Below are positions 61 to 30,389 of a stretch of 64,000 nt of DNA, one piece after another; position 1 is the first letter of the stretch, and each line of letters starts with the position of its first letter. The position numbers and the translations under genes were made by a program. The notes under the pieces were generated by a model that had not been told where the DNA came from, did no database searches, and saw nothing but the letters and a program-made list of their open reading frames with translations. Source of the DNA: an uncultured Gammaproteobacteria bacterium (GTDB lineage: Bacteria; Pseudomonadota; Gammaproteobacteria; JABCZS01); NCBI GenBank assembly GCA_963848305.1, contig CAWKDC010000001.1, forward strand, positions 640,001-704,000, written 5' to 3'.

Positions 61-1029
61 ATGAATGTATTGATTGTTAAACTCACCTCCATGGGAGATC
101 TGGTTCATACCCTCCCCGCCATCACTGATGCGGTCGGCCATGTACCCGATATTCATTTTGACTGGATAGTCGACGAGTCTTTTGCTGATATCCCAGCACT
201 TCATCCACGCATTGAGCAATTGTTTAAAACGGCACATCGACGTTGGAAAAAGCAACTTTTTCACACATTCATGAGTGGGGAGCTGCTCACGCTGTTCCGT
301 ACACTGCGTCAAAAAAAATATGACATTGTGATCGATGCGCAAAATAATCTGAAAAGTGCCGTCATCACAGGGCTCGCAAAAGGGGTACGGTGTGGGATGG
401 ACAAAAACAGTGTGCGTGAAAAAGGCGCCAGTTGGGTGTGTGATAGGACGTTTGCCATACCAGTTCATCAACATGCGATTGATCGTCAACGCCAACTCTT
501 TGCAAAGGTGCTGGGTTATCCCGTGCCCAATACTCCTCCCGACTTCGGTATTTCCACAGAACAATTACCCAAACTGTCTATTGATATCCCCAAGCCTTAT
601 CTTGTCTTCATCCATAGCACCACATGGGACACTAAACATTGGCCTGAAACTTATTGGGAACAACTGATCGCCCTGGCCACTGCAGCGGGTTACCACGTTG
701 TATTGCCTTGGGGAAACGCCATCGAACAGGCCCGCGCGACGCGCTTGAGCAAAGTTAACGCCCATACGACTGTTTTGCCGCGTCTCAGTATTCGTGAACA
801 AGCCAGCATGATTTTGGGTTCAGCTGGTGCTGTCTGCGTCGACACAGGATTGGGGCATCTTACCGCTGCTTTGAACGTACCCGCGGTCCATTTGTATGGG
901 CCGACTGATCCTGCCCTGATTGGCGCAACGGGTCACCATCAAGCCCATTTAGTGGCTGAAAGTGGCTCTTTGAGCGATCTTCACCCACAAACCGTGTGGG
1001 ACGCCATGCGAGCTCAACTCAAGTCTTGA
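61..1029 (+). CDS. waaC: Lipopolysaccharide heptosyltransferase I (GT9)
   Basis: N-terminal MNVLIVKLTSMGDLVHTLPA, plus KHWPE, VDTGLGHL and LYGPTDP motifs; RBS GGAGAGG upstream. Confidence 0.93.
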   Translation: MNVLIVKLTSMGDLVHTLPAITDAVGHVPDIHFDWIVDESFADIPALHPRIEQLFKTAHRRWKKQLFHTFMSGELLTLFRTLRQKKYDIVIDAQNNLKSAVITGLAKGVRCGMDKNSVREKGASWVCDRTFAIPVHQHAIDRQRQLFAKVLGYPVPNTPPDFGISTEQLPKLSIDIPKPYLVFIHSTTWDTKHWPETYWEQLIALATAAGYHVVLPWGNAIEQARATRLSKVNAHTTVLPRLSIREQASMILGSAGAVCVDTGLGHLTAALNVPAVHLYGPTDPALIGATGHHQAHLVAESGSLSDLHPQTVWDAMRAQLKS

Positions 1030-2012
1030 TGGATTTTCCTGGCGATTTCTATCGCATCTGTCGCTGCCCCTCGTCTTAAGTTATCCGAGCACAGCCATAG
1101 TTGTAAGCCATTAGGCAAAGCTGGATCGAGTCGCATACGCCCGACAAACACATTGTCTTGTCCGACGACTTCAACAGGCGTATGATACTGATCCTCCGAT
1201 AATGTCACACTGTTCGCTCCTTTCAATATCTCGCGCAGCGCAGGCAATGTAGGCTGACGCTCAAATGAGAGTGTTAGCGCAATTGAATGCCCAATCATGA
1301 CAGGCACACGCACAGCCATGGCACTGATGGGAAATGAAGCTTTCAGCACTTTATGCACTTCATGAATGATTTTAAATTCTTCGCTGGTCATGCCATCGGC
1401 TCCAATCGACCCTACTTGCGGGATTACATTGAAGGCAATTTGACGCATGAACACGTGGGGGACAACGGGCTGGTCATTTACCACATCAGCAGTTTGACTG
1501 AAGCATTCATCCATTGCGGATTTACCGGCTCCCGACGTTGACTGATACGTTGATACATTCATATAAGTCACACCCAAAGCCTGGTGCAATGGCGCAATAA
1601 CGGTCGAAATGGGAGAAGCCAAACAGTTGGCGTGCGAATACAGTTTTTGGGATGGATTCACGAGGTGAAGATTCACGGGGGGAATGATCAGCGGGACATC
1701 TTTATCTAAACGGAAATGCGAACTTGAGTCAACAACATACGCGCCGAGGCGCAAGGCGACAGGCACCCATTCAGCAGACACATCGCTTTCAGTGCAAAAA
1801 AGCACGACATCCTGATTTGAAAGTGATTTTTCTGACAATGACTGAAGCAGGAATCGTTTGTCATCTACCACCAAAGGCAACCCAGCCGATCTTTCAGACG
1901 CAATGGGTGTGATGTCAGCGCCTGCCGACCAAGAATCCCTTAACAATTGTGCAATCACTCGACGACCGACATTCCCACTGGCACCAACGATAGCGATATG
2001 AAAAGATGACAT
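1014..2012 (-). CDS. asd: Aspartate-semialdehyde dehydrogenase
   Basis: IAIVGASGNVG, catalytic ANC, STYQSTSGAG, RVPV and DNLRRGAA motifs; start set at ATG 2012 after a GAGGAGG RBS. Confidence 0.93.
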   Translation of the reverse strand: MSSFHIAIVGASGNVGRRVIAQLLRDSWSAGADITPIASERSAGLPLVVDDKRFLLQSLSEKSLSNQDVVLFCTESDVSAEWVPVALRLGAYVVDSSSHFRLDKDVPLIIPPVNLHLVNPSQKLYSHANCLASPISTVIAPLHQALGVTYMNVSTYQSTSGAGKSAMDECFSQTADVVNDQPVVPHVFMRQIAFNVIPQVGSIGADGMTSEEFKIIHEVHKVLKASFPISAMAVRVPVMIGHSIALTLSFERQPTLPALREILKGANSVTLSEDQYHTPVEVVGQDNVFVGRMRLDPALPNGLQLWLCSDNLRRGAATDAIEIARKIHQDLS

Positions 2013-2129
2013 GAAAAAGACCTCCTCAAAAGAAATCAAAATATATCATGAATGACGGTAAGTCGGGAGAAAAGCAAATTCTGAAATCAGTGTTACACTT
2101 AACCTATTGATCCAAAGCCAAAAGGACTT

Positions 2130-3272
2130 GTGCCCGTGAATGGATTACTGACAATAGCCCTCAAATTACTTGCAAATGATCGCGGTAAATTTTTTACCCT
2201 GATCGTTGGGGTTTCTTTCGCGGTATTTTTGATGATGCAAATGACCTGTATGTTTGCTGGACTCATGCGCCGCACCGGATCTGATATCTTCAATATCAAT
2301 GCGTCCATGTGGGTCATGGATCCCTCGCTCAACTCACAAGTTGATAATATCCCCATGCCTGATTATGTCCTGGATGCTGTTCGCAGCATTAAAGGTGTTA
2401 AATACGCTGTCCCGCTCTATACAGGCAGTGGCTTGGCCAAACTCAGCACGGGTCGCTATCAAGCAGTGAGTATTCTCGGCATAGACGATGCGACCCTATT
2501 CGGCCGACCCTATATGCTAGAGGGAAATATTGTCAACATTTACAATGACGATGCTTATATTGCGATCAAGGATGCAGAATTTGACAAACTGGATGGGGCA
2601 AAAATAGGCACAACTTTTGAGATCAATGATAATCGCGGTGTCATCGTGGGGATTGGCAAAGCCTCAGTGGGAGGCCTGTTTGGTACGCCCAGTTTATACA
2701 CCACCTATCGACGCGCCATTTCGGTTTTACCACAAACACGGTTTACACAGTCTTTTATTCTCCTTGAACCCAAATCCAAAAAAGATATTGTGAATATCCA
2801 AAATGATGTTAAAGCATTGGGATATCTCGCGTTGACCCGGGATCAATTTTATCAAAAAAACAGAGATTATTATCTTTATAAAACAGGGTTAGGCACCAAC
2901 GTGATGATCATGACATTCATCAGTTTTATCGTTGGTCTTTCCATCGCGGGTCAAACCTTTTATACTTTCGTGATAGAAAATCTTCAAGAATTTGGGGCAC
3001 TTAAAGCCATTGGTGCTAAGAAAAAAGAATTAATCACCATTATATTCTTTCAATCTTCTGTCGTAGGATTTTTGGGGTATGGATTCGGCATGTTTTTATC
3101 CATGAGTGTCATTGCATTTGCAAAACTCAGGCTCGCCAATTATGCTGCATTGGTCACGCTTGAGAATATGTTCTTCACCCTCTTGATGGTGTTGGTGATT
3201 GTCGCTTTTTCGAGTTATCTCGGCATACGAAAAGTGATCACAATTGATCCATTTGATATATTCAGGGGATAA
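2130..3272 (+). CDS. ABC transporter permease, FtsX/MacB/DevC-like
   Basis: N-terminal TM helix, large periplasmic domain, three C-terminal TMs with EFGALKAIGA motif. Confidence 0.88.
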   Translation: MPVNGLLTIALKLLANDRGKFFTLIVGVSFAVFLMMQMTCMFAGLMRRTGSDIFNINASMWVMDPSLNSQVDNIPMPDYVLDAVRSIKGVKYAVPLYTGSGLAKLSTGRYQAVSILGIDDATLFGRPYMLEGNIVNIYNDDAYIAIKDAEFDKLDGAKIGTTFEINDNRGVIVGIGKASVGGLFGTPSLYTTYRRAISVLPQTRFTQSFILLEPKSKKDIVNIQNDVKALGYLALTRDQFYQKNRDYYLYKTGLGTNVMIMTFISFIVGLSIAGQTFYTFVIENLQEFGALKAIGAKKKELITIIFFQSSVVGFLGYGFGMFLSMSVIAFAKLRLANYAALVTLENMFFTLLMVLVIVAFSSYLGIRKVITIDPFDIFRG

Positions 3273-3273
3273 C

Positions 3274-3960
3274 ATGATTCTTGAAGCTCAACATATCAAA
3301 AAGTTCTTTGGCGAAGGTGACAGCATCACTTATGCGTTGCATGATGTGACCTTTGAACTCGATTATGGTGAAATGCTCTATATTATTGGCCCATCTGGCT
3401 CTGGCAAAACAACGTTATTAAGTATTATCTCCGGTATCTTAAGGCCCAATGAAGGGAGTGTGCATGTAGAAGGTAAAGACATCTGGCAACTGAGCGATGA
3501 TGATTTATCAGATTTTAGATTGTACACCATCGGCTTTGTCTTTCAGGATTTTCATTTATTCAATACGCTCACCACCAAAGAAAATGTGGCCGTCCCTTTA
3601 ATTCTTCAAAACAAAACCATGGATGTTGCTCTTGAAGAAGCTGAAAAAAGATTAAAAATTGTGGGCCTAGAAAATAGAATGAACCTAATGCCTAATAAGC
3701 TCAGCATTGGAGAACAGCAGCGAGTAGCCATTGCACGTGCGATGATCACAGAACCCGATATTTTAATTTTCGATGAGCCCACTGCTTCACTTGATGGAGA
3801 AACGGGCAAACGCATCATCTCATTTATCAAAGAAAATATATTAACGCCTAAAAGAGCCATTATCATCGTGACACACGACAATCGTATTTATGATTTTGCA
3901 ACACGCATTATCAGGGTAGAAGACGGAAGAATGAAAGAAGGATTAGGGAGTGAATCATGA
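3274..3960 (+). CDS. ABC transporter ATP-binding protein (LolD/MacB/DevA-like)
   Basis: Walker A GPSGSGKTT, signature LSIGEQQR, Walker B ILIFDEPT, H-loop VTHD. Confidence 0.93.
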   Translation: MILEAQHIKKFFGEGDSITYALHDVTFELDYGEMLYIIGPSGSGKTTLLSIISGILRPNEGSVHVEGKDIWQLSDDDLSDFRLYTIGFVFQDFHLFNTLTTKENVAVPLILQNKTMDVALEEAEKRLKIVGLENRMNLMPNKLSIGEQQRVAIARAMITEPDILIFDEPTASLDGETGKRIISFIKENILTPKRAIIIVTHDNRIYDFATRIIRVEDGRMKEGLGSES

Positions 3961-4892
3961 AAACGAATAAACTATTCATGCTGGCATCCGGCGGCATTCT
4001 CGCAGGTTTGATCAGCGTCTATTTCTACAACGAAAATATTAAACCTCAACAACCACTTGGGGTCAGCTATAATCCTTATGAGGCAGGCATTTATGCAACA
4101 GGCATCGTGGAAAGTTTTCAAAAAAATGGTTCAAATATGAATCTCTATCCTGAGGCAGCTGGCAATGTGATTGATATCAAAGTACAGGATGGAACACACG
4201 TCAAAAAAGGGGATCTGCTTCTTGTTGTTGAACATGATGAGGCGCAAGCCACTGTCAACATGGATAAGGCCACAGTCCAATTAAATAGAGACAATCTTGT
4301 CACAGTTCAACAACAATATGACAAATTGAAAAAAGCCTATGATCTCAATCCGAAATCCGTGAGCAAAAACGATTTGGATAATGCAAAAAATGCAGTCATT
4401 GCAACTAAACAGGATATCGTCGTGGCCGAAGCACTTTTAGCCACTGACGTTGCAGCACTGGAAAACTATTTCATGACATCACCAGCTGAGGGTATAATTT
4501 TGCGGGTCGTTCCTGCACTCGGCGATTATGTCTCTCCTGTTGTAGGTGCTTATGATACATATACACAAGGCAACCTTCCAGTCATTCAAATTGCGCAAGT
4601 CTCACCCTATTATCAAGTGCGAGTATTCGTAGATGAAATCTTAACACCGCAATTGCCTGACCCTTCAAAATTAGAAGCAACCCTCTTTGTGCGTGGCATG
4701 AATAATAAAGCGATTCCTTTAGAATACGTCAACACTCAACCATTCACGATTCCAAATATTGAATTATCTGATCAACGCAATGAACGTGTGGACGTTAGGG
4801 TTTTACCTATCCTATTTAAATTTGAAAAACCGAAAGATATCACGGTCTATCCTGGACAACTGGTCGATATTTACATTAAAGGTAAACCATGA
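3957..4892 (+). CDS. Periplasmic adaptor (HlyD/MFP family) of a tripartite exporter
   Basis: N-terminal anchor, lipoyl-like halves (VQDGTHVKKGD; SPAEG), coiled hairpin, ERVDVRVL...PGQLVDIYI; ATGA overlaps with both neighbours. Confidence 0.87.
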   Translation: MKTNKLFMLASGGILAGLISVYFYNENIKPQQPLGVSYNPYEAGIYATGIVESFQKNGSNMNLYPEAAGNVIDIKVQDGTHVKKGDLLLVVEHDEAQATVNMDKATVQLNRDNLVTVQQQYDKLKKAYDLNPKSVSKNDLDNAKNAVIATKQDIVVAEALLATDVAALENYFMTSPAEGIILRVVPALGDYVSPVVGAYDTYTQGNLPVIQIAQVSPYYQVRVFVDEILTPQLPDPSKLEATLFVRGMNNKAIPLEYVNTQPFTIPNIELSDQRNERVDVRVLPILFKFEKPKDITVYPGQLVDIYIKGKP

Positions 4893-6343
4893 AGACGATC
4901 ATTCAAAATACAATCTGTATTGTCAGCACACTGATGCTGAGCAGTTGTACTTTATATCAAAAACCTGATACACCGGTACCGAATTATCCCCATTCTTTTA
5001 AAGTCTCAGTGAAAGAGATCGATCCTGAACTTAAAAACAATTGGTGGGAAAATTTTAATGATAATACCCTGAATGATCTTGTGCAAAAAGCCCTTAAAAC
5101 AAATTATAGTTATCAAATTGCACTCAATAATATTAACATTGCTCAAACATATGTTGATATGAATATGACAGCACTTTTCCCACAGCTAGGTATTGATTTC
5201 GGAAGCTCACGAAACTTGGGGATTCTCAATGTTGGAAATTCTAGTTCTTCAGCACCTCAATTAATTTCGCCCTCATCTGTACCCGTTCCATTTAATTTGA
5301 GTTTCTTGGCAGCAACCGTTTCTTATGAAATTGATGTCTGGAACCAAGCTCACAACGCAGTTGATCAAGCAAAAGCAAATAAATTTAGCACAGAAGCCAA
5401 TACAAATGTAATGAGGCTTACCCTGATCAGTTCAGTTGTCAATACTTACTTTCAGATAGCAGCACTCACGCATAATATCGATAATCTCAAAAAGCAAGAA
5501 GCTGCAGCCAAGGAAATACTGGAACTCACGCGAATTCAATATGACAGTGAATTAATTGATGAGAGTAATGTTTTCCAGGCCAGCACGCAACTCGAAAATA
5601 TTAAAACGGTTTTGAATACCAATATAAAACAGCGTGATATTTTAGAATATGGTTTAGCTTATTTGGTCGGTGAATTTCCAGAAAATTACACCGTGTTACC
5701 AACTGTTAATCTTGATGAGATTAAATTAACACGATTGATACCTGCCGGTATTCCATCACAAGTGATCAGCACACGCCCTGATATTCAATCAACGGTAGGA
5801 CAAATACTGGCTTATGGTTATCTTGAAAAGCAAAGTATTGCTAATTTTTTACCCAGTTTTTCACTGTCTGCAACCTATGGTTTTGCGAGTGAGGTTTTAT
5901 CATCGCTTACACAGGGGAAAAATGAATTGTGGAATTATGGTACCAACGTGATTCAGATCATATTAGACTACCCCGCTCTGCTTGCCCAATACGAGCAATC
6001 TAAATTGCAGTATGAATCAGCTGTGTTAAACTACAAAAACACAGTTCAAAATGCATTTGTTGAAGTCAATTCTGCGCTGGTGTCTTACGAAGAAGATTTT
6101 AAAACGTTTCAATCCTACAAAATTGAAAAACACAATTCAACAGAATTACTTGGGATAGCGAAGGCTCAGTATGACGCAGGCTTGACCAATTACGTTAATT
6201 ATTTATCGAATGATTTAACCTTTCTTCAAAGCGATTACAACCTCACGAACCAACGTGTGGTTGTACTTCAGGACATTGTGCAAGCGTATAAATCAATGGG
6301 GCTGGGACTCGATGTCACCCTTTACGAACCCGGTACGCATTAA
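4889..6343 (+). CDS. Outer-membrane efflux lipoprotein (TolC/NodT/OprM family)
   Basis: Lipobox LSSC, WWENFND, SYEIDVW, RPDI, C-terminal YKSMGLG. Confidence 0.9.
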   Translation: MKTIIQNTICIVSTLMLSSCTLYQKPDTPVPNYPHSFKVSVKEIDPELKNNWWENFNDNTLNDLVQKALKTNYSYQIALNNINIAQTYVDMNMTALFPQLGIDFGSSRNLGILNVGNSSSSAPQLISPSSVPVPFNLSFLAATVSYEIDVWNQAHNAVDQAKANKFSTEANTNVMRLTLISSVVNTYFQIAALTHNIDNLKKQEAAAKEILELTRIQYDSELIDESNVFQASTQLENIKTVLNTNIKQRDILEYGLAYLVGEFPENYTVLPTVNLDEIKLTRLIPAGIPSQVISTRPDIQSTVGQILAYGYLEKQSIANFLPSFSLSATYGFASEVLSSLTQGKNELWNYGTNVIQIILDYPALLAQYEQSKLQYESAVLNYKNTVQNAFVEVNSALVSYEEDFKTFQSYKIEKHNSTELLGIAKAQYDAGLTNYVNYLSNDLTFLQSDYNLTNQRVVVLQDIVQAYKSMGLGLDVTLYEPGTH

Positions 6344-7120
6344 GTGTTCCCTCTTCAGGTAGAGAATATTATTTTTTAATTTCTGTCTTATATCAGGGTA
6401 TTTTTCCAAAAATTGATTATACTCCACCATCAACCATTCATATTCTTGAAATCTTTGACGATAATGCAGTGGGTCAGTACATCGTGGTTCCATATGTTCA
6501 TGAATAATCATTTGAACATCGGGTACCAAGCTGGGTACAAATCCAGCACTTACCAAGCGGAAAAACAGCTCAGTATCTTCAATCGTTTTCATTTTTTCAT
6601 CAAAAAAACCTATTTGATCAAGACACTCCCTCCGAAATGTGACACCTGCACTTGTTCCTATTGATAAAAAATCCTCAAATAATTCTGCAGTCCCATTATA
6701 TTCATCTCTAAAATGACGATAAAATGTTTTACTTACTCCTGCAGCATCATAACAGATATGCTTTGTTTGACAAAAACTGACACCCACTCGAGTTGGTTGC
6801 GATTCAAGGTGAACGAACGTTTTTGAAAGAAAGTTATCAGGATATTCGTCATCATCATCTAGCAAGGCAACATATTTTCCCTTTGCCAAAAATAGCGCAG
6901 CGTTTCTAGTCGATGCAGGTCCTCTTTGACTGCTCGCCTCAACGTAATGAATTCTTGGATCATTGATGAGAGAAAAAAATGTTGAATAACTAATGGTTGA
7001 GCTATCGTTGACAATAACAATGTCAAAATCAGTGAAAGTTTGTTTGAGAACACTTTGAACAGCTCGAACCAGCATATCTGGTCTGTTGTATGTCGGTATA
7101 ATTACTGTAAAAATAGGCAT
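6293..7120 (-). CDS. Glycosyltransferase family 2
   Basis: VIIPTYNR, VVNDSS-like motif, LLDDDD (DxD), EDTELFFRL. Confidence 0.92.
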   Translation of the reverse strand: MPIFTVIIPTYNRPDMLVRAVQSVLKQTFTDFDIVIVNDSSTISYSTFFSLINDPRIHYVEASSQRGPASTRNAALFLAKGKYVALLDDDDEYPDNFLSKTFVHLESQPTRVGVSFCQTKHICYDAAGVSKTFYRHFRDEYNGTAELFEDFLSIGTSAGVTFRRECLDQIGFFDEKMKTIEDTELFFRLVSAGFVPSLVPDVQMIIHEHMEPRCTDPLHYRQRFQEYEWLMVEYNQFLEKYPDIRQKLKNNILYLKREHLMRTGFVKGDIESQPH

Positions 7121-7145
7121 CGTTTCACCCTGCTCTCCAAGTAGA

Positions 7146-7191
7146 ATAATAGCAAAAATCTGATTGACAGGTCAATAAAAATATGTAACAT
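7146..7191. promoter_or_regulatory. Putative overlapping divergent sigma70 promoters around an ATTGAC-AG-GTCAAT palindrome
   Basis: + strand TTGACA (7164-7169), 16 nt, TAACAT; - strand TTGACC (7175-7170), 18 nt, TATTAT. Confidence 0.45.
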
Positions 7192-7221
7192 TCATCGTAG
7201 GTATGAATGGAGGAAAGTGCC

Positions 7222-7650
7222 ATGGATTGTTATCAAATCAAGTCTCGGGTCATCTATGAAAACATGGATCATGAGGTTATTATCATTAATTTCAATACTG
7301 GTGATTACTACTCGCTTCGCGAGACCGCGAAACTGATTTGGTCATGCATAGAAAACAATATTTCAGTCTCTCATATTATTACCGCTTTTGTACAACGCTT
7401 CCCAATTCAAATTGCTCAAATTGAACAAGATTTGAAACTATTTTTTCAACAACTCATGAATGAAAATCTCATTGAACCTTCTAGCTCAATTGATAATTCT
7501 TTTGATATTTCTATTTTACTTGATCAATCTCCTTTCAACTATTATGTGCAACCCGTTCTTCAAAAGTACTCTGACATTGATCAATTGTTATTGCTTGACC
7601 CAATCCATGATGTAGACAATACAGGCTGGCCGAATCAAGTGGAAGCTTAA
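7222..7650 (+). CDS. PqqD-family RiPP recognition element (RRE) with a C-terminal precursor-like tail
   Basis: EVIIINFNTGDYYSLRETAKLIW...DLKLFFQQLMNENLI fits the PqqD/RRE pattern; tail YYVQPVLQKYSDIDQLLLLDPIHDVDNTGWP; RBS GGAGGA before ATG 7222. Confidence 0.85.
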   Translation: MDCYQIKSRVIYENMDHEVIIINFNTGDYYSLRETAKLIWSCIENNISVSHIITAFVQRFPIQIAQIEQDLKLFFQQLMNENLIEPSSSIDNSFDISILLDQSPFNYYVQPVLQKYSDIDQLLLLDPIHDVDNTGWPNQVEA

Positions 7651-7652
7651 AA

Positions 7653-8687
7653 ATGCTCACAAATGCTGATCTGTTCCATCTACAAATCCATGCTTCATTT
7701 GAAGAATCCGCAATCGGATTACACGTCGAAGAGGCCTGCTACAGCATTGCAGGTCAAACGATTTTATTGAAGTCGTTAAACAAGAACATGCTGGACAAAT
7801 TAACCGCAGCACTTGCGCATGCAAAATTGGGTGCTTCAAATAATCCACACTTCACCATCCATATTTGGGATTCGGCATCTCTAGGTGTTCCAAACATTAA
7901 ATTTAACTGGCACGATGAGCACTCATCCTATGGGTTGCGAGGTGAGGTACGATTACATAATACTGATAACGTCTACACGATACTTGACATCCATACAGGC
8001 GCATTGATGCTTCTTAACAAAAAAACCAATCAAGGATATTATTGGATAGATAATGCCAATAGGCTTCCTTGGTGGGTCAGTGGTTCTCCGATGCAACAAC
8101 TGCTTAGCTGGTGGATGCGAGATCGAGGATTACAATTAACCCATGCTGGTGCAGTGGGTTATTCAAGTGGCGGCGTGATATTGGCAGGAAACAGCGGTGC
8201 AGGTAAATCTACTACGGCGCTGGCCTGCATGAAGTATGGGATGAAATTTGTCAGCGAAGATTATTGCTTACTCAGTGTTCAAGATCAATTGAAAGCGCAT
8301 TGTATTTATTCCTCAGCTAAACTTGAACAAAATACACTCAATTTTTTTCCTGAAATGAACGAACATATTGATAATAAAAATAGGACAGAACATGAAAAAG
8401 CTTTTTTATATCACCATCAAATTTGGCCTGATCGTATCGCTCAAGGTTTTCCAATAAAAGCAATCTTGGTTTTGAAAAGACAAAACACCACTCGTAGCTC
8501 TATTCAACCCGCTACAAAGGATGATGCCCTCAAAGCACTTGCCATCAGCACAATGTGGCAATTGACACATACGGGCATTCCAACATTTCAGTTATTGAAA
8601 AAGGCAACAGAATCTGTCCCTTGCTACTTCCTGCACTTGGGTCGTGACCTGCAGCATATCCCAGAGATCATTGGACATGTTTTATGA
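7653..8687 (+). CDS. HprK-related serine kinase (lasso/RiPP-associated type)
   Basis: LTHAGAV, P-loop GNSGAGKSTT, FVSED; lacks the canonical HprK EIRGLG signature. Confidence 0.82.
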   Translation: MLTNADLFHLQIHASFEESAIGLHVEEACYSIAGQTILLKSLNKNMLDKLTAALAHAKLGASNNPHFTIHIWDSASLGVPNIKFNWHDEHSSYGLRGEVRLHNTDNVYTILDIHTGALMLLNKKTNQGYYWIDNANRLPWWVSGSPMQQLLSWWMRDRGLQLTHAGAVGYSSGGVILAGNSGAGKSTTALACMKYGMKFVSEDYCLLSVQDQLKAHCIYSSAKLEQNTLNFFPEMNEHIDNKNRTEHEKAFLYHHQIWPDRIAQGFPIKAILVLKRQNTTRSSIQPATKDDALKALAISTMWQLTHTGIPTFQLLKKATESVPCYFLHLGRDLQHIPEIIGHVL

Positions 8688-9811
8688 ACATACTTTTTTG
8701 GACAGATCGATTTTATCCTGGCATCGGCGGCATTGAAACACAAACATTTCAATTGATTCAAGGTTTATTAACAAAAAATCATCGTTGTTTGGTTTTCGCA
8801 AATCAATATGATTTATCGCTACCCTTAAAAGAAACAGTCGACGGTATTGAAATAATCAGATACGATTTCTCACCGTTTCTTGAATGGAATATGAATGGTC
8901 GTGTTTTACTCAAGGAAGTTGAGACAGCTTTAAAAACTCTCTTTTCAACGTTTAAGCCAGATATTATCCACCTTTCTCTGTACGTTATCAGTCAAACAGG
9001 CATGTGCTTCTTGCTTTTACGAAAAATGATACCTTGTCCAGTTGTTTTTACTGTTCATGGTATACCATACACTCACGGTAAGCCCTATCATCTTTTCAAT
9101 TTTTTTCTCGAACAATCTGATCAAGTCTGTTGCGTCTCAAATTCGGTTGTTTCATTAGTTAATCAATTCGCTCCAAAAGTGTCCCATAAAACAAAGCTCA
9201 TTTACAATGGGCTTTCTCTACCTTCGGATCATCATACTCATTTACCCTATGATCCACCTGTCTTGTTATGCCTGGGAAGGCTTTCATCTGAGAAAGGATT
9301 TGACATTGCAATTAAAGCATTCTTGTATGCAAAAGCAGAATTTCCATCTGTAAAAATGATGATTGTCGGTAGTGGTTATGAAAATTCATCGCTTGAGAAA
9401 CTTGTTAATGATCTGAATCTGACTGATTCCATCATTTTTGAAGGAGCAGTGAAAGCAACTGATGTTCATTCATACATTAAGCGATCAACCATTGTATTAA
9501 TGCCATCATACTCTGAAACTTTCGGATTAGTGGCCGTTGAAGCAGCGCAGATGAAAAGGCCAGTCATTGCTTGTGCCACTGGCGGTCTTGTGGAAGTGAT
9601 TATTGATAATGAGACAGGCATATTGGTCCCACGTTATGATTATAAAGCTTTTTCACAGGCCATACTTAGACTATTAAACAACCCAGCTTTAGCCATTTAT
9701 TTAGGAGAAAATGCGTATAACCGTGCTAATCAAAAATTCTCTCTCAAGAATGTCGTCGAGAATTACGAAAGTGTATATCAAAAACTACTCACCTGTGAAG
9801 CAATACCATGA
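8684..9811 (+). CDS. Glycosyltransferase family 4 (GT-B)
   Basis: PGIGGIET, LGRLSSEKG, ETFGLVAVEA (EX7E). Confidence 0.93.
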   Translation: MNILFWTDRFYPGIGGIETQTFQLIQGLLTKNHRCLVFANQYDLSLPLKETVDGIEIIRYDFSPFLEWNMNGRVLLKEVETALKTLFSTFKPDIIHLSLYVISQTGMCFLLLRKMIPCPVVFTVHGIPYTHGKPYHLFNFFLEQSDQVCCVSNSVVSLVNQFAPKVSHKTKLIYNGLSLPSDHHTHLPYDPPVLLCLGRLSSEKGFDIAIKAFLYAKAEFPSVKMMIVGSGYENSSLEKLVNDLNLTDSIIFEGAVKATDVHSYIKRSTIVLMPSYSETFGLVAVEAAQMKRPVIACATGGLVEVIIDNETGILVPRYDYKAFSQAILRLLNNPALAIYLGENAYNRANQKFSLKNVVENYESVYQKLLTCEAIP

Positions 9812-10527
9812 ATATTAACGATTTGATCAGTGTGATTATCCCCTGTTTCAATGGAGAAAAGTACATTAACGAAGCCATTGAAAGTGTCATTTGTCAGAAA
9901 GACGTTTGTTTTGAAATCATTATTGTAGATGATGGATCAACTGATAACACTTCAAAGATAATCAAACAATATACTGAAAAGAACATCAAATTGTTATACC
10001 AGGCCAATCATGGACAAGGATATGCATTCAATAATGCAATTGGCGTTTCGAATGGAAATTATATTGCTTTTCTTGATCATGATGATTTATTTACGCCGAA
10101 CAAATTATCGCTTCAAATAAACTACATGAAAGATAATCCAGATACGCATTTGGTTTTTGGCATGATAGAACACTTCATCAGTCCTGAGTTACCTGATCAC
10201 ATCAAAACAATACGTCATTGTCCATCAGAACCATTACCAGGTATTGCGCCCTCCACAATGATGTTTAAACGAGAATGCTTTGATATCCTAGGCCCATTTA
10301 ACACCACCTTGAAAGTGGGCTCTCATATTGATTGGCTGATTCGCGCTAAAGAAAAAGGCTTTAATCAATACACTCTTCCACAAGTAGTATCACGGCGCAG
10401 AATACACGATACAAATACCAGCATCATAGAACGACACAATCATGGTCAATATATTCAAATCATCAAAGAAAAACTTGCACGAGAACGACTGAGAAATGCA
10501 CATAATGAGGTTTACCATGAAAAATGA
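9808..10527 (+). CDS. Glycosyltransferase family 2
   Basis: ISVIIPCFNGE, VDDGSTD, FLDHDD, RRRIH. Confidence 0.93.
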   Translation: MNINDLISVIIPCFNGEKYINEAIESVICQKDVCFEIIIVDDGSTDNTSKIIKQYTEKNIKLLYQANHGQGYAFNNAIGVSNGNYIAFLDHDDLFTPNKLSLQINYMKDNPDTHLVFGMIEHFISPELPDHIKTIRHCPSEPLPGIAPSTMMFKRECFDILGPFNTTLKVGSHIDWLIRAKEKGFNQYTLPQVVSRRRIHDTNTSIIERHNHGQYIQIIKEKLARERLRNAHNEVYHEK

Positions 10528-11680
10528 TGACTATTCAGGCAACTGTTGGCCTAAGGATCAACATTTATTATTGATGCAAGCCGCGCTTCTTGACGGTGAT
10601 AAGGCATTAAACGCTTGGCATCAATGGATATCTACGGTCGATATTGACAAGCTTGACTATCCATCCTATCAGATAATCCCTTTGCTCTATCATAATCTTA
10701 AAAAAATGCAGATAAGTCATCCTGCAATGAATATTTTTAAGGGCATTCATCAACGCACCTGGGTTGAGAATCAACGAATGACGATGTTGTTCTCAGATGT
10801 CGTACAACAATTAATATCTCACGGTATCGACGAGATTGTTCTCATGAAAGGCGGGGCAATGATTGCTCTCTACTACCAAGATTTTGGCATGCGACAAATG
10901 GGTGACATCGACTTTCTGGTACGCCCTGAATGTGTTCAACAAGTCATGCAATGCTTAACAGAGCTCGGTTTCAAAGGAGAAAATATCGAGCATAAAATGA
11001 ATACACAACATGCAGTTAATTTAATGTGCGATTCTGCTCCTTTCAAAGGGCTCAATATTGATCTCCATTGGAGTATGCTCTATCAAATACCTCTCCCCAA
11101 CATTGATCCGCATTGGGTGCTCGATGCCGAGAAAACCTCTTTGCATGGTGTTAAATTATTGGCGTTGTCTCCCACACATTTGTTATATCAAACCTGTATT
11201 CATGGCTCAAAATACAGCCCATTGCCGCTCACGCGCTGGGTATTAGATGCCCATACTATTTTATCTCAGAAGAAAAATGTCATTAACTGGGATGCTCTTA
11301 TCGAAAGAGTCGATTATGATCGCACAGTTTTTCCCATGCTCCAAACACTGAGTTTTTTAATCGATCATTTTGATTCCCCTGTCCCCTCACATGTTCTTGA
11401 AAGATTGCGCGCATCACCCATACTGCGCTTTGAAAGATGGCATACACGGTTCAGCCAGCATAAGTGGTTAAGTTTAACACTGATATTCCCCCGTCTCTGG
11501 CATGAGCATCAAAGAATGCTACAAGGTGCATCAACCATAAAAGCGTTGATCAATTTTCCAGTTTTTTTGCAACATAAATTTTCGTTGAACAGCGTTTGGG
11601 CACTATTCTTCTTTTTGCCAACGAAGTCAATCCAGGTTATTCAGTCGAGGATCTTTTCTTTATTTCCCCGCGCGGACTAA
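10517..11680 (+). CDS. Nucleotidyltransferase, NTP_transf_5 family
   Basis: VLMKG...YY...R.MGDIDFLV and IDLHW motifs; start ATG 10517 after GAGG. Confidence 0.85.
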   Translation: MKNDDYSGNCWPKDQHLLLMQAALLDGDKALNAWHQWISTVDIDKLDYPSYQIIPLLYHNLKKMQISHPAMNIFKGIHQRTWVENQRMTMLFSDVVQQLISHGIDEIVLMKGGAMIALYYQDFGMRQMGDIDFLVRPECVQQVMQCLTELGFKGENIEHKMNTQHAVNLMCDSAPFKGLNIDLHWSMLYQIPLPNIDPHWVLDAEKTSLHGVKLLALSPTHLLYQTCIHGSKYSPLPLTRWVLDAHTILSQKKNVINWDALIERVDYDRTVFPMLQTLSFLIDHFDSPVPSHVLERLRASPILRFERWHTRFSQHKWLSLTLIFPRLWHEHQRMLQGASTIKALINFPVFLQHKFSLNSVWALFFFLPTKSIQVIQSRIFSLFPRAD

Positions 11681-13924
11681 ACTACCTAACCCCGCCTCTA
11701 CCAATGCATTTTCAAGTAAAGCGCGTGTTTTGAGAGGATCATCCAATTGCAGTACAAATCCCAATAATGATTGTGCAACTGAGAGGGGAATATTACGTAT
11801 GACCCACTTAACCCGTGTTAAACTCATGGCGTTCATGCTCAAGGAATCGTAGCCCATGGCCAATAACAAAATAACGCTCGCTGGATCACCTGCCATTTCG
11901 CCACAGATGCTGACTGGTTTTCCCTGTGCATGTGCTCCTTCTACCACTTGAATCAATGCTTGTATGACAGCGGGGTGAAATGAATCATATAAATTAGCCA
12001 CACGTGAATTATTTCGATCCACTGCCAACATATATTGTGTCAAATCATTGCTACCAACTGATAAAAAATCGCATTCACTCGCAAATAAACTTGCTTGATA
12101 AACTGCCGATGGGACTTCTACCATAACCCCCACTTGAGGACGATCAATGAGCAGATCTTCCGATTTGACTTCATAATAAGCTTGTTCAATCAGCGCATTG
12201 GCTTCTCGAATTTCACGAACAGCACTGACCATCGGAAGCATAATGCGCAAATTATTAAGCCCACTGCTCGCACGCAACATCGCACGCACTTGTACCATAA
12301 AGATTTCAGGATGATCGAGTGTGATGCGCAAACCGCGCCATCCTAAAAATGGATTTTCTTCTGCAAAGCTAAAATAAGGTAATACTTTATCGCCGCCCAC
12401 ATCCAAGGTCCGCATGGTGACAGGACGTGGATAAAATGCTCGCAGGATTTGTTCATATATTTGACGCTGTTCTTCTTCACTGGGAAAACGTTCCCGAATC
12501 ATGAACGGGACTTCTGTCCGATAAAGTCCAACACCTTCTGCACCCACATTCAAGGAGGAAGGAATATCGGCAACCAATCCTGTATTCACCAGCAAAGGCA
12601 CATGGTGACCGTCAGGCGTGCATGCTGGTTGGTTGTGTAGCGCTTGCAATCCTTCCTGAAATGCCTTCCCTTCCTTCATAAGACGAGAAAATTCTTTGCA
12701 GACGGTCAGCGAAGGAGATAAATGCACTTTCCCATGATAACCATCAATCGCAAGTGTTTGTTTATCAATGCCGCCTAATGGTAATTCGTAGGCGCCCATA
12801 ACCGTTGGAATACCCATAGAACGTGCCAGAATGGCCACATGAGAATTCGATGATCCACGCAAACAGACGATACCGACTAATTTATCAGCGGGAACTTCTG
12901 CCAAATTGGATGCACTGATATCCTCACCCACTAGAATTGTTTGTTCATAATATACCGGCACTTCTTTTTGTTCTGCTTGCAGTTTAGACAGTATGCGCGC
13001 ACCAAGATCTTTCAAATCTGTTGAACGTTCTCGCAAATAAGCATCTTCCATCGATTCAAAATTTAAAATATGTTTTGAGATCACCTCGCGCAGCGCGGCT
13101 TGAGACCAGCATTTTTTGGTCTTGATCACCTCAATAACTTCATCACCCAACCCTGATCGTTCCAGCATGTTGATATAAGCATTGAATAATGCCTGTTCTT
13201 CTGTCGGCAAAGATTTTTTAAGCCGATCGGCAAGTTCACGCATTTCATCACGCGCTGATTGCAATGCTTCTAAAAAGTGATCGATTTCAGCATTCACATC
13301 TTCAATATGACGATCGGGGACGGCATCTAAATCTGCAAGGGGATACACACGTACTGCTGTCCCGATGGCCACACCAGGAGCACCTGCAATCCCTTGAATT
13401 TCTGACTCGCGCTTGGATTTAAAAGCACTGCCATCAATTTCGCTCTCTGTTTTGACTTGCGCAATGATCCCTCCCAGTTGTGCTGACACTGTTAATAAAA
13501 ATGCTTCTTCATTTTCATCAAACGTGCGATTGCCTGACTGTTGCGCCACCAAAATACCCAGCACTTTGCGCTGGTGGATGATGGGGACGCCCAGGAAAGC
13601 GGCATATCTTTCTTCACCGGTTTCAGGAAAATACATATAATTGGGATGATTGACAGCATCTTCAATATTGAGTAATTCTTCTCTTTCGCCAACCAAGCCC
13701 ACTAAACCCTGACCGACATCTATTTTCAACATACCGTCTATGCCAGGGTGATACCCTTTTGAGGCAATCAATGTATAGCAAGCCTCTTTTTCATTTTTGA
13801 GGAAAATCGCACATGCATCCACATGAATGGTTTCACAGACACGTCTCACCACAATACTCAACGCATCTGCAAGACCTGACGCTGCACTCATTTCTTGTGT
13901 GATACGTCGAATGAATTGGATCAT
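11660..13924 (-). CDS. ptsP: PEP-protein phosphotransferase EI-Ntr with GAF domain
   Basis: N-terminal GAF, SHVAILARS, GLYRTE, ENPFLGWRG, GSNDLTQY; downstream of rppH. Confidence 0.96.
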   Translation of the reverse strand: MIQFIRRITQEMSAASGLADALSIVVRRVCETIHVDACAIFLKNEKEACYTLIASKGYHPGIDGMLKIDVGQGLVGLVGEREELLNIEDAVNHPNYMYFPETGEERYAAFLGVPIIHQRKVLGILVAQQSGNRTFDENEEAFLLTVSAQLGGIIAQVKTESEIDGSAFKSKRESEIQGIAGAPGVAIGTAVRVYPLADLDAVPDRHIEDVNAEIDHFLEALQSARDEMRELADRLKKSLPTEEQALFNAYINMLERSGLGDEVIEVIKTKKCWSQAALREVISKHILNFESMEDAYLRERSTDLKDLGARILSKLQAEQKEVPVYYEQTILVGEDISASNLAEVPADKLVGIVCLRGSSNSHVAILARSMGIPTVMGAYELPLGGIDKQTLAIDGYHGKVHLSPSLTVCKEFSRLMKEGKAFQEGLQALHNQPACTPDGHHVPLLVNTGLVADIPSSLNVGAEGVGLYRTEVPFMIRERFPSEEEQRQIYEQILRAFYPRPVTMRTLDVGGDKVLPYFSFAEENPFLGWRGLRITLDHPEIFMVQVRAMLRASSGLNNLRIMLPMVSAVREIREANALIEQAYYEVKSEDLLIDRPQVGVMVEVPSAVYQASLFASECDFLSVGSNDLTQYMLAVDRNNSRVANLYDSFHPAVIQALIQVVEGAHAQGKPVSICGEMAGDPASVILLLAMGYDSLSMNAMSLTRVKWVIRNIPLSVAQSLLGFVLQLDDPLKTRALLENALVEAGLGSLVRAGK

Positions 13925-25092: not shown

Positions 25093-25824
25093 CTACAAAA
25101 ATCTTTGCCGCATCACCTCGTACAACGCTATCCCCGTCGCAACGGATACGTTCAGGCTTTGCATTTCATTTTGCATCGGAATATATGCAAGAAAATCGCA
25201 GTGTTTTTGTGTGCCGGCACGAATGCCCTCGCCTTCGGAACCCATCACAATCGCAATCGAACCTTTCAAATCCAATTGAGACAAAGGCTTGGCTTGCTCA
25301 TTCAATACGGTGCCGACAATCCAAATGCGTTCATCTTTCATCATCTCTAGCGCGCGCGATAAATTAGTGACAGCAAATAAATCCAACTGTTCAACAGCCC
25401 CACTGGCGACTTTATGTACAATCGGTGTGATTTGCGCCTGCTTGTCTTTGGGCCAGACGACAGCCGTCACGCCAAATGCGGCGGCTGAACGCAAGCATGC
25501 GCCCAAATTATGGGGATCTTGAATCCCATCCAGGACTAAAATCAAGGGATTATCTGGTAATTTAGCCAGAAAAGTTTTGAAAGACTTTTCATCGCCAATT
25601 TTTTTATCATTCATCATCAGTGCAATGCCTTGATGATTGGCATCACGCACATGTTGATCCAACTGATTGACACGTTCTATGCGAACGCCGAATGATTGTG
25701 CCAAAGAAACCACTTCAGTTAAACGGGCATCTTTCTTATCGATTTGCACATACAATGTTTTCGCATCTTCAGGTGAAGATTTTAAACATTGAGCTACTGC
25801 GTGAAACCCATACACCCATCTCAT
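25093..25824 (-). CDS. rlmB: 23S rRNA (G2251-2'-O)-methyltransferase
   Basis: YGFHAV, HQG, DPHNLGACLRSA, GSEGEG, SLNVSVATGI; downstream of rnr. Confidence 0.96.
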   Translation of the reverse strand: MRWVYGFHAVAQCLKSSPEDAKTLYVQIDKKDARLTEVVSLAQSFGVRIERVNQLDQHVRDANHQGIALMMNDKKIGDEKSFKTFLAKLPDNPLILVLDGIQDPHNLGACLRSAAAFGVTAVVWPKDKQAQITPIVHKVASGAVEQLDLFAVTNLSRALEMMKDERIWIVGTVLNEQAKPLSQLDLKGSIAIVMGSEGEGIRAGTQKHCDFLAYIPMQNEMQSLNVSVATGIALYEVMRQRFL

Positions 25825-28026
25825 TTTTTCTTTTTCACCTTCTCAACCAATAAGAAATCAATTTTACGATCATCTAAATGCACGGCCGCGATTTTCACGG
25901 TGACTTTATCGCCGATGCGGAAAATCACACCGCTGCGATCGCCTGTTAAGCGGTGATGAATCGCATCGTATTGATAGTAATCATTATCAAGCGATGCCAC
26001 ATGTACCAGCCCTTCCACAAAAATATCCGTGAGTTCAACAAAGATACCAAAACCAGTGACCGATGTGATCATGCCTTCAAATGTTTCGCCGACGTGATCT
26101 AGCATGTATTCACATTTGAGCCAATGCGTGACATCTCGAGTGGCTTCATCGGCGCGACGTTCAGTCATGGAGCAATGTTCACCCATTTGCGCCAACATCT
26201 TTTCATCGAAATGGGCTTTATCGACATGGCCAGATAATACTTCTTTTAACGCACGATGCACAATCAAGTCTGGATAACGGCGAATCGGTGAAGTGAAGTG
26301 TGTGTAAGAATCGAATGCTAAGCCGAAATGGCCCATGTTGTCTTTCAAATACACTGCCTGTTTCATTGAGCGTAATGCGACTGTTTGTAATAACTGTTTA
26401 TCATCGCGGTCACGAATGCTTTCGATCAGTTTGGCATAATGTTTGGGCTCTGGATCGTCGCCACCACCCAACACCAAGCCAAAGGGTGCCAAAAATTGGC
26501 GTAATTCATTCAGCTTTTCAGGCAAGGGTTTTTCATGGACACGGAACAAAGCAGGCATATCATGCTCAATTAAAAAGTTGGCAACTGTCTGGTTTGCAGC
26601 CAGCATGCATTCTTCAATCAGTTTATGTGCGACATTGCGTGTGCGTGGGACGATTTTAGAAATCTTTTTATTCTCGTCAAATAATATTTGTGTTTCAACT
26701 GTTTCAAAATCGATGGCTCCACGTTTTTCACGCTGGGCCAACAAACGCTCGTACAATGCATGCAGAACGGTAATATCTTCACATAATTCAGCAGGAATAT
26801 CATGCGGCTGGTTTTCTAAAAATGCAGCGACCCGCGTGTAGGTTAAGCGTTCTTTCGAACAAATCACGCCATCATAAATCTCACTGTGTTTGATCACGCC
26901 CGCATTCGATATATCCATTTGGCACACCATCACCAAACGATCCACATACGGTTTCAATGAGCATAAACCGTTCGATAAAATTTCCGGCAACATGGGAATC
27001 ACGCGGTTGGGGAAATAAACAGAATTACCGCGTTCATAGGCGGAATGATCCAACGCCGTACCAGGCTTCACATAATATGCCACATCCGCAATTGCGACAT
27101 ATAATTGATATCCGCCTTTCGTTTTTCTGGCGTACACAGCATCGTCGAAATCTCTGGCGTCTTCACCATCAATCGTCACAAAATGCAAATCACGTAAATC
27201 TTTGCGGCCTTCATACGCTTCTTTTGGAACCGTTTCGGTTCAGATTTTTCACTTCCGCTTCAACTTCAGGATCGAATGCAAACGGCAAACCATGTGCACG
27301 TACAGCGACATCCACTTCTAACCCAGGGCCCATGTGTTCGCCCAATATTTCAATCACTTCACCCATGGCATACTTGTGTGCCGTGGGAGGATGCGTGATT
27401 TTAACGACGACGATGTCACCCGATTTGGGATGCAATGCGCCTTGATGAATCAAAATGTCTTGCGCAATTTCACGTGAGCCGGGAACGACATAAGGCACCC
27501 CCGCTTCAACCGCATAACGCCCGACCACTTGCGGGGTGTTGCGTTCCAGAATTTCAACAATTTTACCCTCATGACGGCCTTTGCGATCGGGAAAACTCTC
27601 GCGCGCAATGACGCGATCTCCATGAAATACTTGGCGCATTTCAAATGGGGATAAAAACAGATCTTTGCTGCCATCGTCAGGCACGAGAAAACCGAAACCA
27701 TCTTTATGAGCTTGCACACGGCCGGCCACGAGACGCATTTTGTCGAGCAGCCCGTAGTTGCCGCGGCGATTGACTGCCAACTGGCCATCGCGCACCATCG
27801 CACGCAAGCGACGATCCAACGCTTCTAAATCGGATTCACTGCTTAGATGCAATAACTCAGCGATTTCTTCAAAATTCTGGGGTTTCCCGACACCTTCCAA
27901 TGTCATCAAGATAAATTCACGGCTGGGGATAGGGGATTCGTATTTTTGGGCTTCCCGCTCATGATGGGGATCTTTCGATTTTTTCAACTTTTTCGACTCT
28001 TTTAACGCTTTAGACTTTCTAGGCAT
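25821..28026 (-). CDS. rnr: Ribonuclease R, frameshifted near 27240
   Basis: PIPSREFI, cold-shock domains, TIDGEDARDFDDAV, HFTSPIRRYPD, S1 domain; two ORFs join across the shift. Confidence 0.95.
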
Positions 28027-30289: not shown

Positions 30290-30389
30290 AACCTGTTTCT
30301 TTTCGTCAGACAATCCTACGATTCCTGACTGCACCCCTTAATTTATTTTATGATAAATGGTCTGGAACCATTATCTATTGGAGAAAACC

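Follow-up and report, generated by a model that had tools for sequence, protein, structure and literature searches.

A PqqD-type recognition protein with a leader-like motif on its own tail, and its conserved kinase, glycosyltransferase and nucleotidyltransferase partners, in a low-GC island of an uncultured gammaproteobacterium

The stretch of DNA analysed here, 64,000 nucleotides from an uncultured Gammaproteobacteria bacterium (contig CAWKDC010000001.1, positions 640,001 to 704,000 of the forward strand; hereafter the window), contains at 6293-11680 an operon of five genes preceded by a sixth, divergent gene. The first gene of the operon encodes a small PqqD-family protein in which a recognition element for peptides that are made by the ribosome and modified after translation (RiPPs), i.e. 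a RiPP recognition element (RRE), is followed on the same polypeptide by a leader-like motif and a conserved tail; we refer to it as the RRE-tail protein. Listing of the open reading frames (ORFs) and family scans located all six genes where a preliminary description, made from the DNA letters alone, had placed them:

6293-7120 (-): divergent glycosyltransferase (GT) of family 2 (GT2), with a DxD run, soluble; Glycos_transf_2 7.2e-26 (Pfam)
7121-7221: divergent intergenic region; promoter-like hexamers on each strand, and the PqqD gene's ribosome-binding site
7222-7650 (+), alternative start 7207: RRE-tail (PqqD) protein, 142 aa; PqqD 3.3e-13 (Pfam)
7653-8687 (+): HprK-like P-loop kinase; Hpr_kinase_C 2.6e-5, 24.3 bits, under the 33.3-bit cut-off (Pfam)
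8684-9811 (+): family 4 glycosyltransferase (GT4) of GT-B fold; Glycos_transf_1 3.7e-40, Glyco_transf_4 9.5e-17 (Pfam)
9808-10527 (+): small soluble GT2; Glycos_transf_2 1.8e-33 (Pfam)
10496-11680 (+): NTP_transf_5 nucleotidyltransferase (NTase); PF14907 3.9e-32, polymerase-beta fold, its G-G ... D-x-D centre intact

The five plus-strand genes are translationally coupled (one 2-nt gap, two ATGA overlaps and one 32-nt overlap), and the coupled operon with a divergent GT2 gene that had been proposed was thus recovered in full. The divergent GT2 contains no hydrophobic 19-mer. The likely start of the PqqD gene is 7222, giving the 142-aa product, because a GGAGG sequence (7209-7213) lies 5-8 nt upstream of that ATG. 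The hexamers of the intergenic region read TTGACA-16-TAACAT at 7164-7191(+) and TTGACC-18-TATTAT at 7175-7146(-); over the whole region, promoter-like sites were not enriched relative to shuffled sequences. Within 6200-11800 there is neither free space nor a plausible small ORF for a separate precursor gene, in agreement with the preliminary description.

The RRE-tail protein of the window can be divided into five regions, given below with their conservation, expressed as the mean frequency of the commonest residue:

residues 1-85: PqqD/RRE domain of lasso-B1 type, 0.44
residues 86-104: variable linker, 0.15
residues 105-116: leader-like motif Y108-x-x-P111-x-L113 (the FxxPxL part), 0.47
residues 117-137: highly conserved element, 0.81
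residues 138-142: variable end past GWP, 0.25

The tail consensus was drawn from 140 proteins of 130-190 aa, namely 137 of the best 150 matches and three others, and the pattern [FY]xxPxLxK[YF][TS]DMQ[DE]LLLLDPIH[ED]VDExGWP is in register in 136 of them. The conserved element comprises 21 residues (S117-P137 in the window protein, of the DMQDLLLLDPIHEVDExGWP type), and the stretch past GWP has a median length of 8 residues. The family is large: run against all of the representative library, HMMER retrieved 3897 representatives at E<=1e-3, of which 1559 remain at E<=1e-10, and the best 150 matches all align up to about query residue 143. An Atlas look-up returned clusters of about 150 aa, which occur most often in Bacteroidota and Cyanobacteriota. 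Of 401 genomes sampled from the phylum of the window organism, 30 match at 1e-10, the tail being covered in only seven; among the Chlamydiota, to which a relative described below belongs, 8 of 200 genomes match. Assignment of the protein to the biosynthesis of pyrroloquinoline quinone failed, since it scores 23.3 bits against TIGR03859 (cut-off 46) and the genes next to it encode a kinase, GTs and an NTase.

One tail motif per locus is present in 90 of 91 loci, always within the PqqD ORF, and the genome that contains the window (1.89 Mb in 4 contigs, 92.4% complete) has one copy each of PqqD and NTP_transf_5. A region search for free tail peptides with the window's tail gave no match. A search with a tail profile among proteins of 30-74 aa gave 85 matches, which start within the RRE (21), within the linker (20), or at the motif or beyond it (44); most of these short ORFs look like truncated gene calls, because many sit on contigs of about 1 kb. 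Unrelated N-termini were observed in P0172, P0199 and P0243. In P0199 (63 aa, on a 564-bp contig) a signal-peptide-like N-terminus stands directly before the YxxP motif and the conserved element, and this ORF may encode the tail in a free, secreted form, unless it is an artefact of gene calling. Tandem PqqD proteins also occur, with two or three PqqD domains that are in some cases joined to a kinase (P0005, P0018 and P0035, 781-849 aa; P0024 and P0138, 392-398 aa; P0011, P0017 and P0072, 276-283 aa).

Several lines of evidence bear on the relation between the RRE and the motif that follows it. The RRE matched the complex of TbiB1 with its leader (5v1v) in Foldseek (E 7.8e-6, TM-score 0.90 on the target), 6jx3 being matched as well, and the family profile found TbiB1 (3.8e-18), 9x90_B (2.7e-14), TfuB1 (7.5e-8) and 9x8z_B (5.5e-7) in the PDB. 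The motif bound by discrete RREs of lasso peptide clusters and of the linear polyphosphorylated peptides (LPPs) is [Y/W]xxPx[L/V/I/F/A] (PMC13381572); the tail motif of the window protein matches it, but sits on the polypeptide of the RRE itself. Among 128 family members, the first residue of the motif varies together with position 70 of the RRE: a Tyr is accompanied by Asp or Glu in 44 of 52 cases, a Phe in only 6 of 76. The mutual information of this pair (0.63 bits) is the highest of 141 columns, the runner-up reaching 0.41. In 23 tree-independent Y/F pairs taken from a FastTree phylogeny, position 70 changes in the same way in 13, in the opposite way in one and not at all in nine (sign test, p 0.0018, unsupported branches included). 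At the position that aligns with D70 of the window protein, TbiB1 and TfuB1 have the Asp of their 'ERD' sequence and PbaB1 has a Gln. In the crystal structures, as reported in PMC13381572, D70 of LppB forms a hydrogen bond with the Tyr at leader position -16 (Y-16), and Q79 of PbaB1 bonds W-15.

On the evidence of these alignments, RRE and tail motif co-evolve. Because the Y/F exchange covaries with the RRE residue that bonds the leader Tyr, the RRE probably binds its own tail. The multidomain relatives have a compatible layout. In the tandems P0011 and P0024 every RRE is followed by a leader-like F-x-x-P/A-x-[LVIM] sequence, while the DPIH..GWP element is present on one domain only; in the kinase fusion P0018 the motif fits only the first follow-on stretch, and again a single domain bears DPIH..GWP. 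The AlphaFold2 model of the window protein (pLDDT 88.4) has a confident strand at residues 113-116, right after Y108-x-x-P111, which we infer to pair with beta-3 of the RRE in the model. Blocks up to residue 120 have pLDDT values of 86-98, whereas residues 121-142 reach only 54-64, which suggests that this stretch is not packed against the domain. Judging from the sequences, the RRE thus most likely binds its [FY]xxPxL motif in cis and leaves the element 117-137, with the short variable end, exposed.

The neighbourhoods of homologues, whose survey the preliminary description had recommended, turned out to be as conserved as it supposed. A motif scan of metagenome contigs recognized 555 relatives among 600 pattern matches; 80 loci were retained, and their neighbouring genes were identified by phmmer with the window proteins. 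Of the 60 loci whose downstream DNA extends to 600 bp or more, 48 have the kinase gene directly downstream of the RRE-tail gene. In the 20 loci with at least 6.5 kb downstream, a kinase and a GT are present in all 20 and an NTase in 17, so that 17 contain all three. As for the 12 loci lacking an adjacent kinase, seven have a GT or NTase gene directly next and one has a divergent kinase; in the remaining four no cassette gene was matched beside the RRE-tail gene, and three of these are short contigs. In one proteobacterial genus, four genomes have the order RRE-tail, kinase, two or three GT2, then NTase, and P0018 is a natural fusion of three PqqD domains with an Hpr_kinase_C domain. The kinase, at least one GT and NTP_transf_5 are therefore conserved partners of the RRE-tail protein across phyla. 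The window itself has all the traits by which we define the RRE-tail cassette: RRE, [FY]xxPxL and DPIH..GWP in one ORF, the kinase directly downstream, and GTs with NTP_transf_5. The small GT2 and the NTase were also considered as a fixed adjacent pair, but this was rejected, as they are adjacent in only 8 of 23 loci; an ABC exporter, epimerase or PMT_2 gene is often found between them.

A Pfam scan of 95 of the 189 unassigned neighbour ORFs, with preference for downstream ones on the same strand, added further transferases (GT4, GT25, PMT_2, GT61), MsbA-type ABC exporters (six loci), a pair of ABC-2 genes (one locus), as well as epimerases, short-chain dehydrogenases/reductases (SDRs), a GlcNAc 2-epimerase, radical-SAM proteins and one sulphotransferase. 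The 95 ORFs included no Transglut_core3 protein or peptidase, and the one AsnB among them has a clear glutamine-amidotransferase domain. In the nearest relatives (L008 and L045), a divergent GT61 gene occupies the place of the divergent GT2 gene of the window. L008 is a Chlamydiota relative (2196-9428). Its upstream surroundings contain genes for an inverse-autotransporter-like protein and a protein with an RXYLT1 C-terminal domain, along with the divergent GT61, and GT11 and GT92 genes follow downstream; L045 has a GT61/RXYLT1_C fusion in the corresponding place. The glycosyltransferase families seen around L008 are known mostly from eukaryotes. PF14907 and PF05402 are both over their cut-offs in Bacteroides thetaiotaomicron and Deinococcus radiodurans and, if the two genes adjoin in these species, a tractable model organism may hold a related cassette.

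The enzymes of the operon look active and cytoplasmic as far as their sequences and models can tell. The kinase consists of an N-terminal domain of about 150 aa without a known fold and a catalytic domain; in an alignment of 36 relatives, G179, G182, G184 and K185 of the P-loop, as well as D203 and Y204, are invariant, and the family profile matches HprK/P (1jb1, E 1.8e-4) across the P-loop and the DD region. In the NTase, K118, G119 and D137 are invariant and D139 is nearly so (19 relatives). Its AlphaFold2 model (pLDDT 89) matches MenT1, JHP933, LnuA and ANT(2'') in Foldseek; according to PMC6993621, PsmN, an NTP transferase of the pseudomycoidin pathway, is likewise related to polymerase-beta-fold nucleotidyltransferases and has an essential D-x-D. 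The small GT2 (9808-10527) is of an orthologous type in most related cassettes (phmmer 1e-28 to 1e-82). Neither the RRE-tail protein nor the enzymes have membrane-segment-like stretches, except for one 19-mer in the GT4 that resembles a buried helix.

The set of genes recalls several known systems. The HprK_rel_A (TIGR04352) and HprK_rel_B (TIGR04355) families of NCBIfam are, like the window kinase, distant HprK-type P-loop kinases, and the HPr-rel-A system is said to pair with a PqqD protein. Membership in that system, to which the preliminary description had likened the trio, has to be discarded: the window kinase scores 28.3 bits against TIGR04352 and 45.1 bits against TIGR04355, compared with a cut-off of 200, and the HPr-rel-A PqqD model is not among the six NCBIfam families matched by the window PqqD protein. 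In borosins, too, a RiPP component and its substrate peptide form one polypeptide, each molecule being used once; there, however, the fusion partner is a catalytic methyltransferase, while here it is a non-catalytic recognition domain.

With lasso clusters the window shares a B1-type RRE and a YxxPxL leader, here on one polypeptide, but the cassette differs from them in having no cyclase, B2 protease or free precursor. A genome search bore out the earlier observation that cyclase and B2 protease are missing. Transglut_core3 (PF13471), the B2 protease family, has no match in the genome, at its 92.4% completeness; PF00733, the family of the lasso cyclase, has only two short matches of PP-loop type, far from the window and outside the operon, covering 57 and 75 of 354 positions in ORFs of 234 and 403 aa. 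Closer parallels are paeninodin and pseudomycoidin. As reported in PMC8498205 and PMC6993621, HprK homologues phosphorylate a Ser of paeninodin-type lasso precursors, and PsmN is required for the addition of one or two hexoses to that phosphate. These pathways share with the window a B1-type RRE, an HPr-kinase homologue (acting there on the precursor before folding) and an NTP transferase; phosphorylation there falls on a C-terminal Ser, but the last residue of the window protein is Ala.

The closest known system is that of the LPPs, a cyclase-less Bacillota family established experimentally by Popov et al. in 2026 (PMC13381572), which demonstrates the very combination of RRE, HprK-like kinase and NTase without a cyclase that had been envisaged for this locus. 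In the LPP pathway, the kinase LppK adds up to four phosphates to Ser3 of a linear precursor, which the RRE LppB holds, the NTase LppN was inactive in the heterologous host, and the family is described as restricted to Bacillota, with LPP and paeninodin clusters sitting in capsule loci (PMC13381572). LPP clusters and the window cassette share a B1-like RRE, an HprK-like kinase and an uncharacterized NTP transferase without a cyclase, a frequent ABC exporter and surroundings rich in glycosyltransferases, as well as the YxxPx[VL] recognition motif and a helix-3 Asp of the RRE that touches the Tyr of the motif. The differences are also considerable. The LPP precursor is a separate protein of 35-200 aa, whereas in the window the RRE and the motif form one protein; what follows the motif is variable in the LPP core and nearly invariant in the window family. 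LPPs are defined by a SipW-type (archaeal-type) signal peptidase I, which is absent from the operon and the genome (no TIGR02228 match in the genome, no peptidase domain in the operon). In the window cassette, unlike in LPP clusters, the GTs belong to the conserved operon and a MacB/DevC-type pump is combined with an outer-membrane factor; its hosts are Gram-negative phyla instead of Bacillota. Finally, the RRE profile matches the presumed LppB chain 9x8z_B at 5.5e-7, as against 3.8e-18 for TbiB1. The literature searched contained no RRE fused to its own recognition motif together with a kinase, GT and NTase set, although the LPP supplements, outside that search, might list Gram-negative relatives. 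HprK, RRE and glycosyltransferase were found together only in the papers on LPP and pseudomycoidin and in one unrelated review, and there was no mention of NTP_transf_5 by name.

By analogy with these systems, we propose that the RRE-tail protein is a self-presenting RRE protein whose tail is phospho-glycosylated by the kinase, the NTase and the GTs, with no cyclase or dedicated peptidase involved, and we put the probability of this at about one in two. The protein would hold its own leader-like motif and present the exposed tail; the HprK-like kinase would phosphorylate a hydroxyl group on it, as its counterparts do in paeninodin, pseudomycoidin and LPPs; the NTP_transf_5 enzyme, with the GT2 and GT4, would then add sugars to the tail phosphate and extend them. 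The product, a phospho-glycosylated protein or peptide made in the cytoplasm, might leave through the DevCA/membrane-fusion protein/NodT pump apparently acquired together with the operon, or remain in the cell. The chemistry of phosphorylation, nucleotidylation and glycan addition is inferred from the parallels above. The best candidate for the acceptor is position -9 (S117 in the window protein), which matches the post-leader Ser site of LPPs and is Thr or Ser in 112 of 136 proteins.

A number of observations weigh against this proposal. When only well-supported branches are used, the covariation between motif and RRE is reduced to 4 pairs (p 0.5), a sample without statistical power, and the Pfam score of the kinase lies under the gathering cut-off (24.3 vs 33.3 bits). 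The tail has no invariant Ser, Thr or Tyr; the window's own end past GWP (NQVEA) contains none of the three, and Ser or Thr occurs there in only 78 of 140 relatives. The kinase is kept in all nine validly registered loci that have D, N, A or E at position -9, four of which come from one genus (a tenth row, L121, was a mis-registered match and was dropped). No other region of the protein is as strongly conserved as the 21-residue element (0.81; the RRE has 0.44) and, since RiPP cores are usually variable, this element looks more like one for docking or recognition; in addition, the lack of a peptidase among the 95 neighbour ORFs implies that no peptide need be released. The pump type varies among relatives, being MsbA-type in six loci, ABC-2 in L008 and L121 and MacB/DevC in the window. 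MacB-type pumps are thought to act on periplasmic substrates, which places an export route from the cytoplasm in doubt. As LppN was inactive in the heterologous host, the NTase chemistry is not established either. The designation of the protein as an RRE-precursor fusion in the preliminary description holds in part: the leader-like motif is indeed on the RRE's own tail, but the conserved tail resembles a docking or leader element more closely than it does a typical RiPP core. Position -9 was rejected as a fixed phospho-acceptor, given that 9/9 loci without Ser or Thr there keep the kinase and four loci with Ser or Thr show no kinase in the available DNA.

The lack of a fixed hydroxyl, the over-conserved element, the absence of a peptidase, the varied pumps and the silent LppN give real weight to an alternative, which we consider possible but doubtful: the RRE-tail protein may be an adaptor and not a substrate, its invariant element docking or regulating the kinase, NTase and GTs while a phosphodiester-linked glycan is built on a lipid carrier, a lipopolysaccharide (LPS) core or another protein and then exported. 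A conservation so far above that of the RRE would be expected of a protein-protein interface, and an adaptor would need neither an invariant hydroxyl nor a kinase that disappears when -9 is not Ser or Thr, nor a peptidase in the neighbourhood. The related loci often contain sugar-nucleotide genes (epimerases, SDR, GlcNAc 2-epimerase) and membrane transferases of PMT_2 type, ABC-2 (Wzm/Wzt-like) transporters stand beside the Chlamydiota copy, and the capsule loci of LPP and paeninodin clusters (PMC13381572) point in the same direction. However, Pfam and NCBIfam scans of the island in which the operon lies revealed no priming phosphoglycosyl transferase, flippase or polymerase, and its transferases are all soluble. 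Moreover, the leader-like motif would have no obvious role in a pure scaffold, and the kinase targets an RRE-bound peptide in every characterized relative, namely paeninodin, pseudomycoidin and LPP (PMC8498205, PMC6993621, PMC13381572).

It is very unlikely that the three GTs are ordinary LPS or exopolysaccharide genes standing by chance beside an unrelated RRE, kinase and NTase trio. A waaC gene does lie at the edge of the window (61-1029), and the best family matches of the GT2 and GT4 proteins are polysaccharide enzymes, all far under their cut-offs; but kinase and NTase have GTs between them in the window, the Chlamydiota MAG (metagenome-assembled genome), the one proteobacterial genus and the majority of long metagenome loci, a GT is present in 20/20 long loci, the genes overlap and are translationally coupled, and the entire block was looked for beside ptsP and asd in two genomes of the same genus without being found. 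A decayed lasso cluster that has lost its cyclase, B2 protease and precursor gene is barely plausible: the RRE is nearest to lasso B1 proteins and kinase and NTase are known as lasso tailoring enzymes (PMC8498205), yet the six genes are intact in a window where several housekeeping genes are split, the cyclase-less layout is kept in dozens of loci of several phyla, and the 95 neighbour ORFs offer no Transglut_core3 and a sole Asn_synthase match that has an amidotransferase domain. An anti-phage or conflict system using glycosylation, suggested by a secondary match of the GT4 to the Pfam family GT4-conflict (3.4e-13) and by the position within an acquired island, can hardly be upheld, as none of the six operon proteins is matched by a PADLOC model and the GT4 protein fits the generic GT4 families much better than GT4-conflict.

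A more specific version of the self-presenting protein, rather improbable in our view, is a single-use carrier instead of a chaperone: the RRE would clamp its own leader while the kinase, the polymerase-beta-fold transferase and the GTs assemble a phosphodiester-linked glycan on the invariant tail. If this were true, the cassette would represent a phospho-glycan pathway that is primed by a protein and occurs in Bacteroidota, Cyanobacteriota, Chlamydiota and Pseudomonadota, and a new RiPP-like class with recognition element and substrate on one polypeptide. In eukaryotes, alpha-dystroglycan is modified by a pathway of kinase, fukutin-type transferase and GTs, which the logic of such a carrier would resemble.

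RREs are a common handle in RiPP genome mining and are taken as chaperones that pass a separate precursor to the enzymes. A large family (> 1500 cluster representatives) in which the RRE has its own recognition motif and a nearly invariant tail departs from this view, and it extends the chemistry of LPPs and phosphorylated lasso peptides into Gram-negative phyla. A system of two to five genes could also reveal what NTP_transf_5 enzymes do, their action being unsettled in both pseudomycoidin and LPP. What makes the cassette clearly interesting is the size of the family, the small number of genes needed to test the hypothesis and the prospect of settling the role of NTP_transf_5. In addition, a 2025 survey gives 21% of PF05402 proteins as exceeding the size of a discrete RRE without another domain, and the RRE-tail family may account for part of these (PMC12710340).

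The operon is the distal part of a larger island, which opens with four export genes; with its flanks it is composed as follows:

61-1029: waaC, family match
1014-2039 (-): asd, flank of the island
2130-3272 (+): DevC/MacB-type ABC permease, first gene of the island; FtsX 1.8e-11, MacB_PCD 5.4e-9 (Pfam)
3244-3960 (+): ABC ATPase of DevA/LolD/MacB type; ABC_tran 2.8e-37 (Pfam)
3957-4892 (+): periplasmic membrane-fusion (adaptor) protein; RND_mfp 3.5e-18, weak HlyD_D23 and biotin-lipoyl matches
4889-6343 (+): NodT-family outer-membrane efflux factor; outer_NodT 6e-73, 246 bits, over the 210 cut-off; OEP 1.5e-37
11660-13924 (-): ptsP, EI-Ntr type, flank; 800 bits vs a cut-off of 583

The permease has four hydrophobic 19-mers and matches NCBIfam devC under the cut-off (2.3e-14). 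The ATPase matches heterocyst_DevA (1.1e-62, 211 bits, under the 295.8 cut-off) and the model of the darobactin exporter DarD (4.8e-48). The NodT gene overlaps the convergent GT2 gene by 51 nt at its 3' end. The insertion of AT-rich DNA between asd and ptsP that had been described is real as to composition, the GC content being 0.39 over 2130-11680 and 0.489 and 0.473 in the flanks, but the 9.6-kb island starts earlier than supposed, at 2130, and the export pump had been missed.

In two genomes of the same genus, asd comes about 0.7 kb and about 2.9 kb after ptsP, and tblastn found none of the island proteins in the ptsP/asd stretches fetched from them; the PqqD protein was not found in these two or in nine genomes of the same family. 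In the phylogeny, the kinase clusters with an uncultured Chlamydiota MAG and one metagenome contig (support 100/98). The MAG has the order RRE-tail, kinase, GT4, GT4, GT2, NTase, behind a divergent GT gene. The low GC content, the absence of the proteins beside ptsP and asd in the same-genus genomes and the grouping of the kinase with the Chlamydiota MAG together indicate that the whole island is a recent horizontal acquisition; for this genome it is a recent transfer shared with environmental chlamydiae. The only sequencing runs with DNA nearly identical to 6293-11680 (up to 0.52 of sampled words) were metagenomes of soil and wetland, which come from several studies.

The island genes are all intact, despite the split housekeeping genes elsewhere in the window. 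RNase R is in two pieces (25821-28101(-)), aconitase AcnA in three (51326-54004(-)) and Lon in two (57928-60428(-)); an LbtU-type siderophore porin is divided into two ORFs (34762-36089(+)), hemL covers about 297 of 429 profile positions (46606-47583(+)), and AhpC is a fragment (34313-34624(+)). The split housekeeping genes may reflect either pseudogene formation in a small genome or indel errors of the assembly. In the flank that holds ptsP, rppH lies beside it. A gene for an HPr-family phosphocarrier is present at 30357-30659(+), in addition to ptsP, with no link to the HprK-like kinase of the island.

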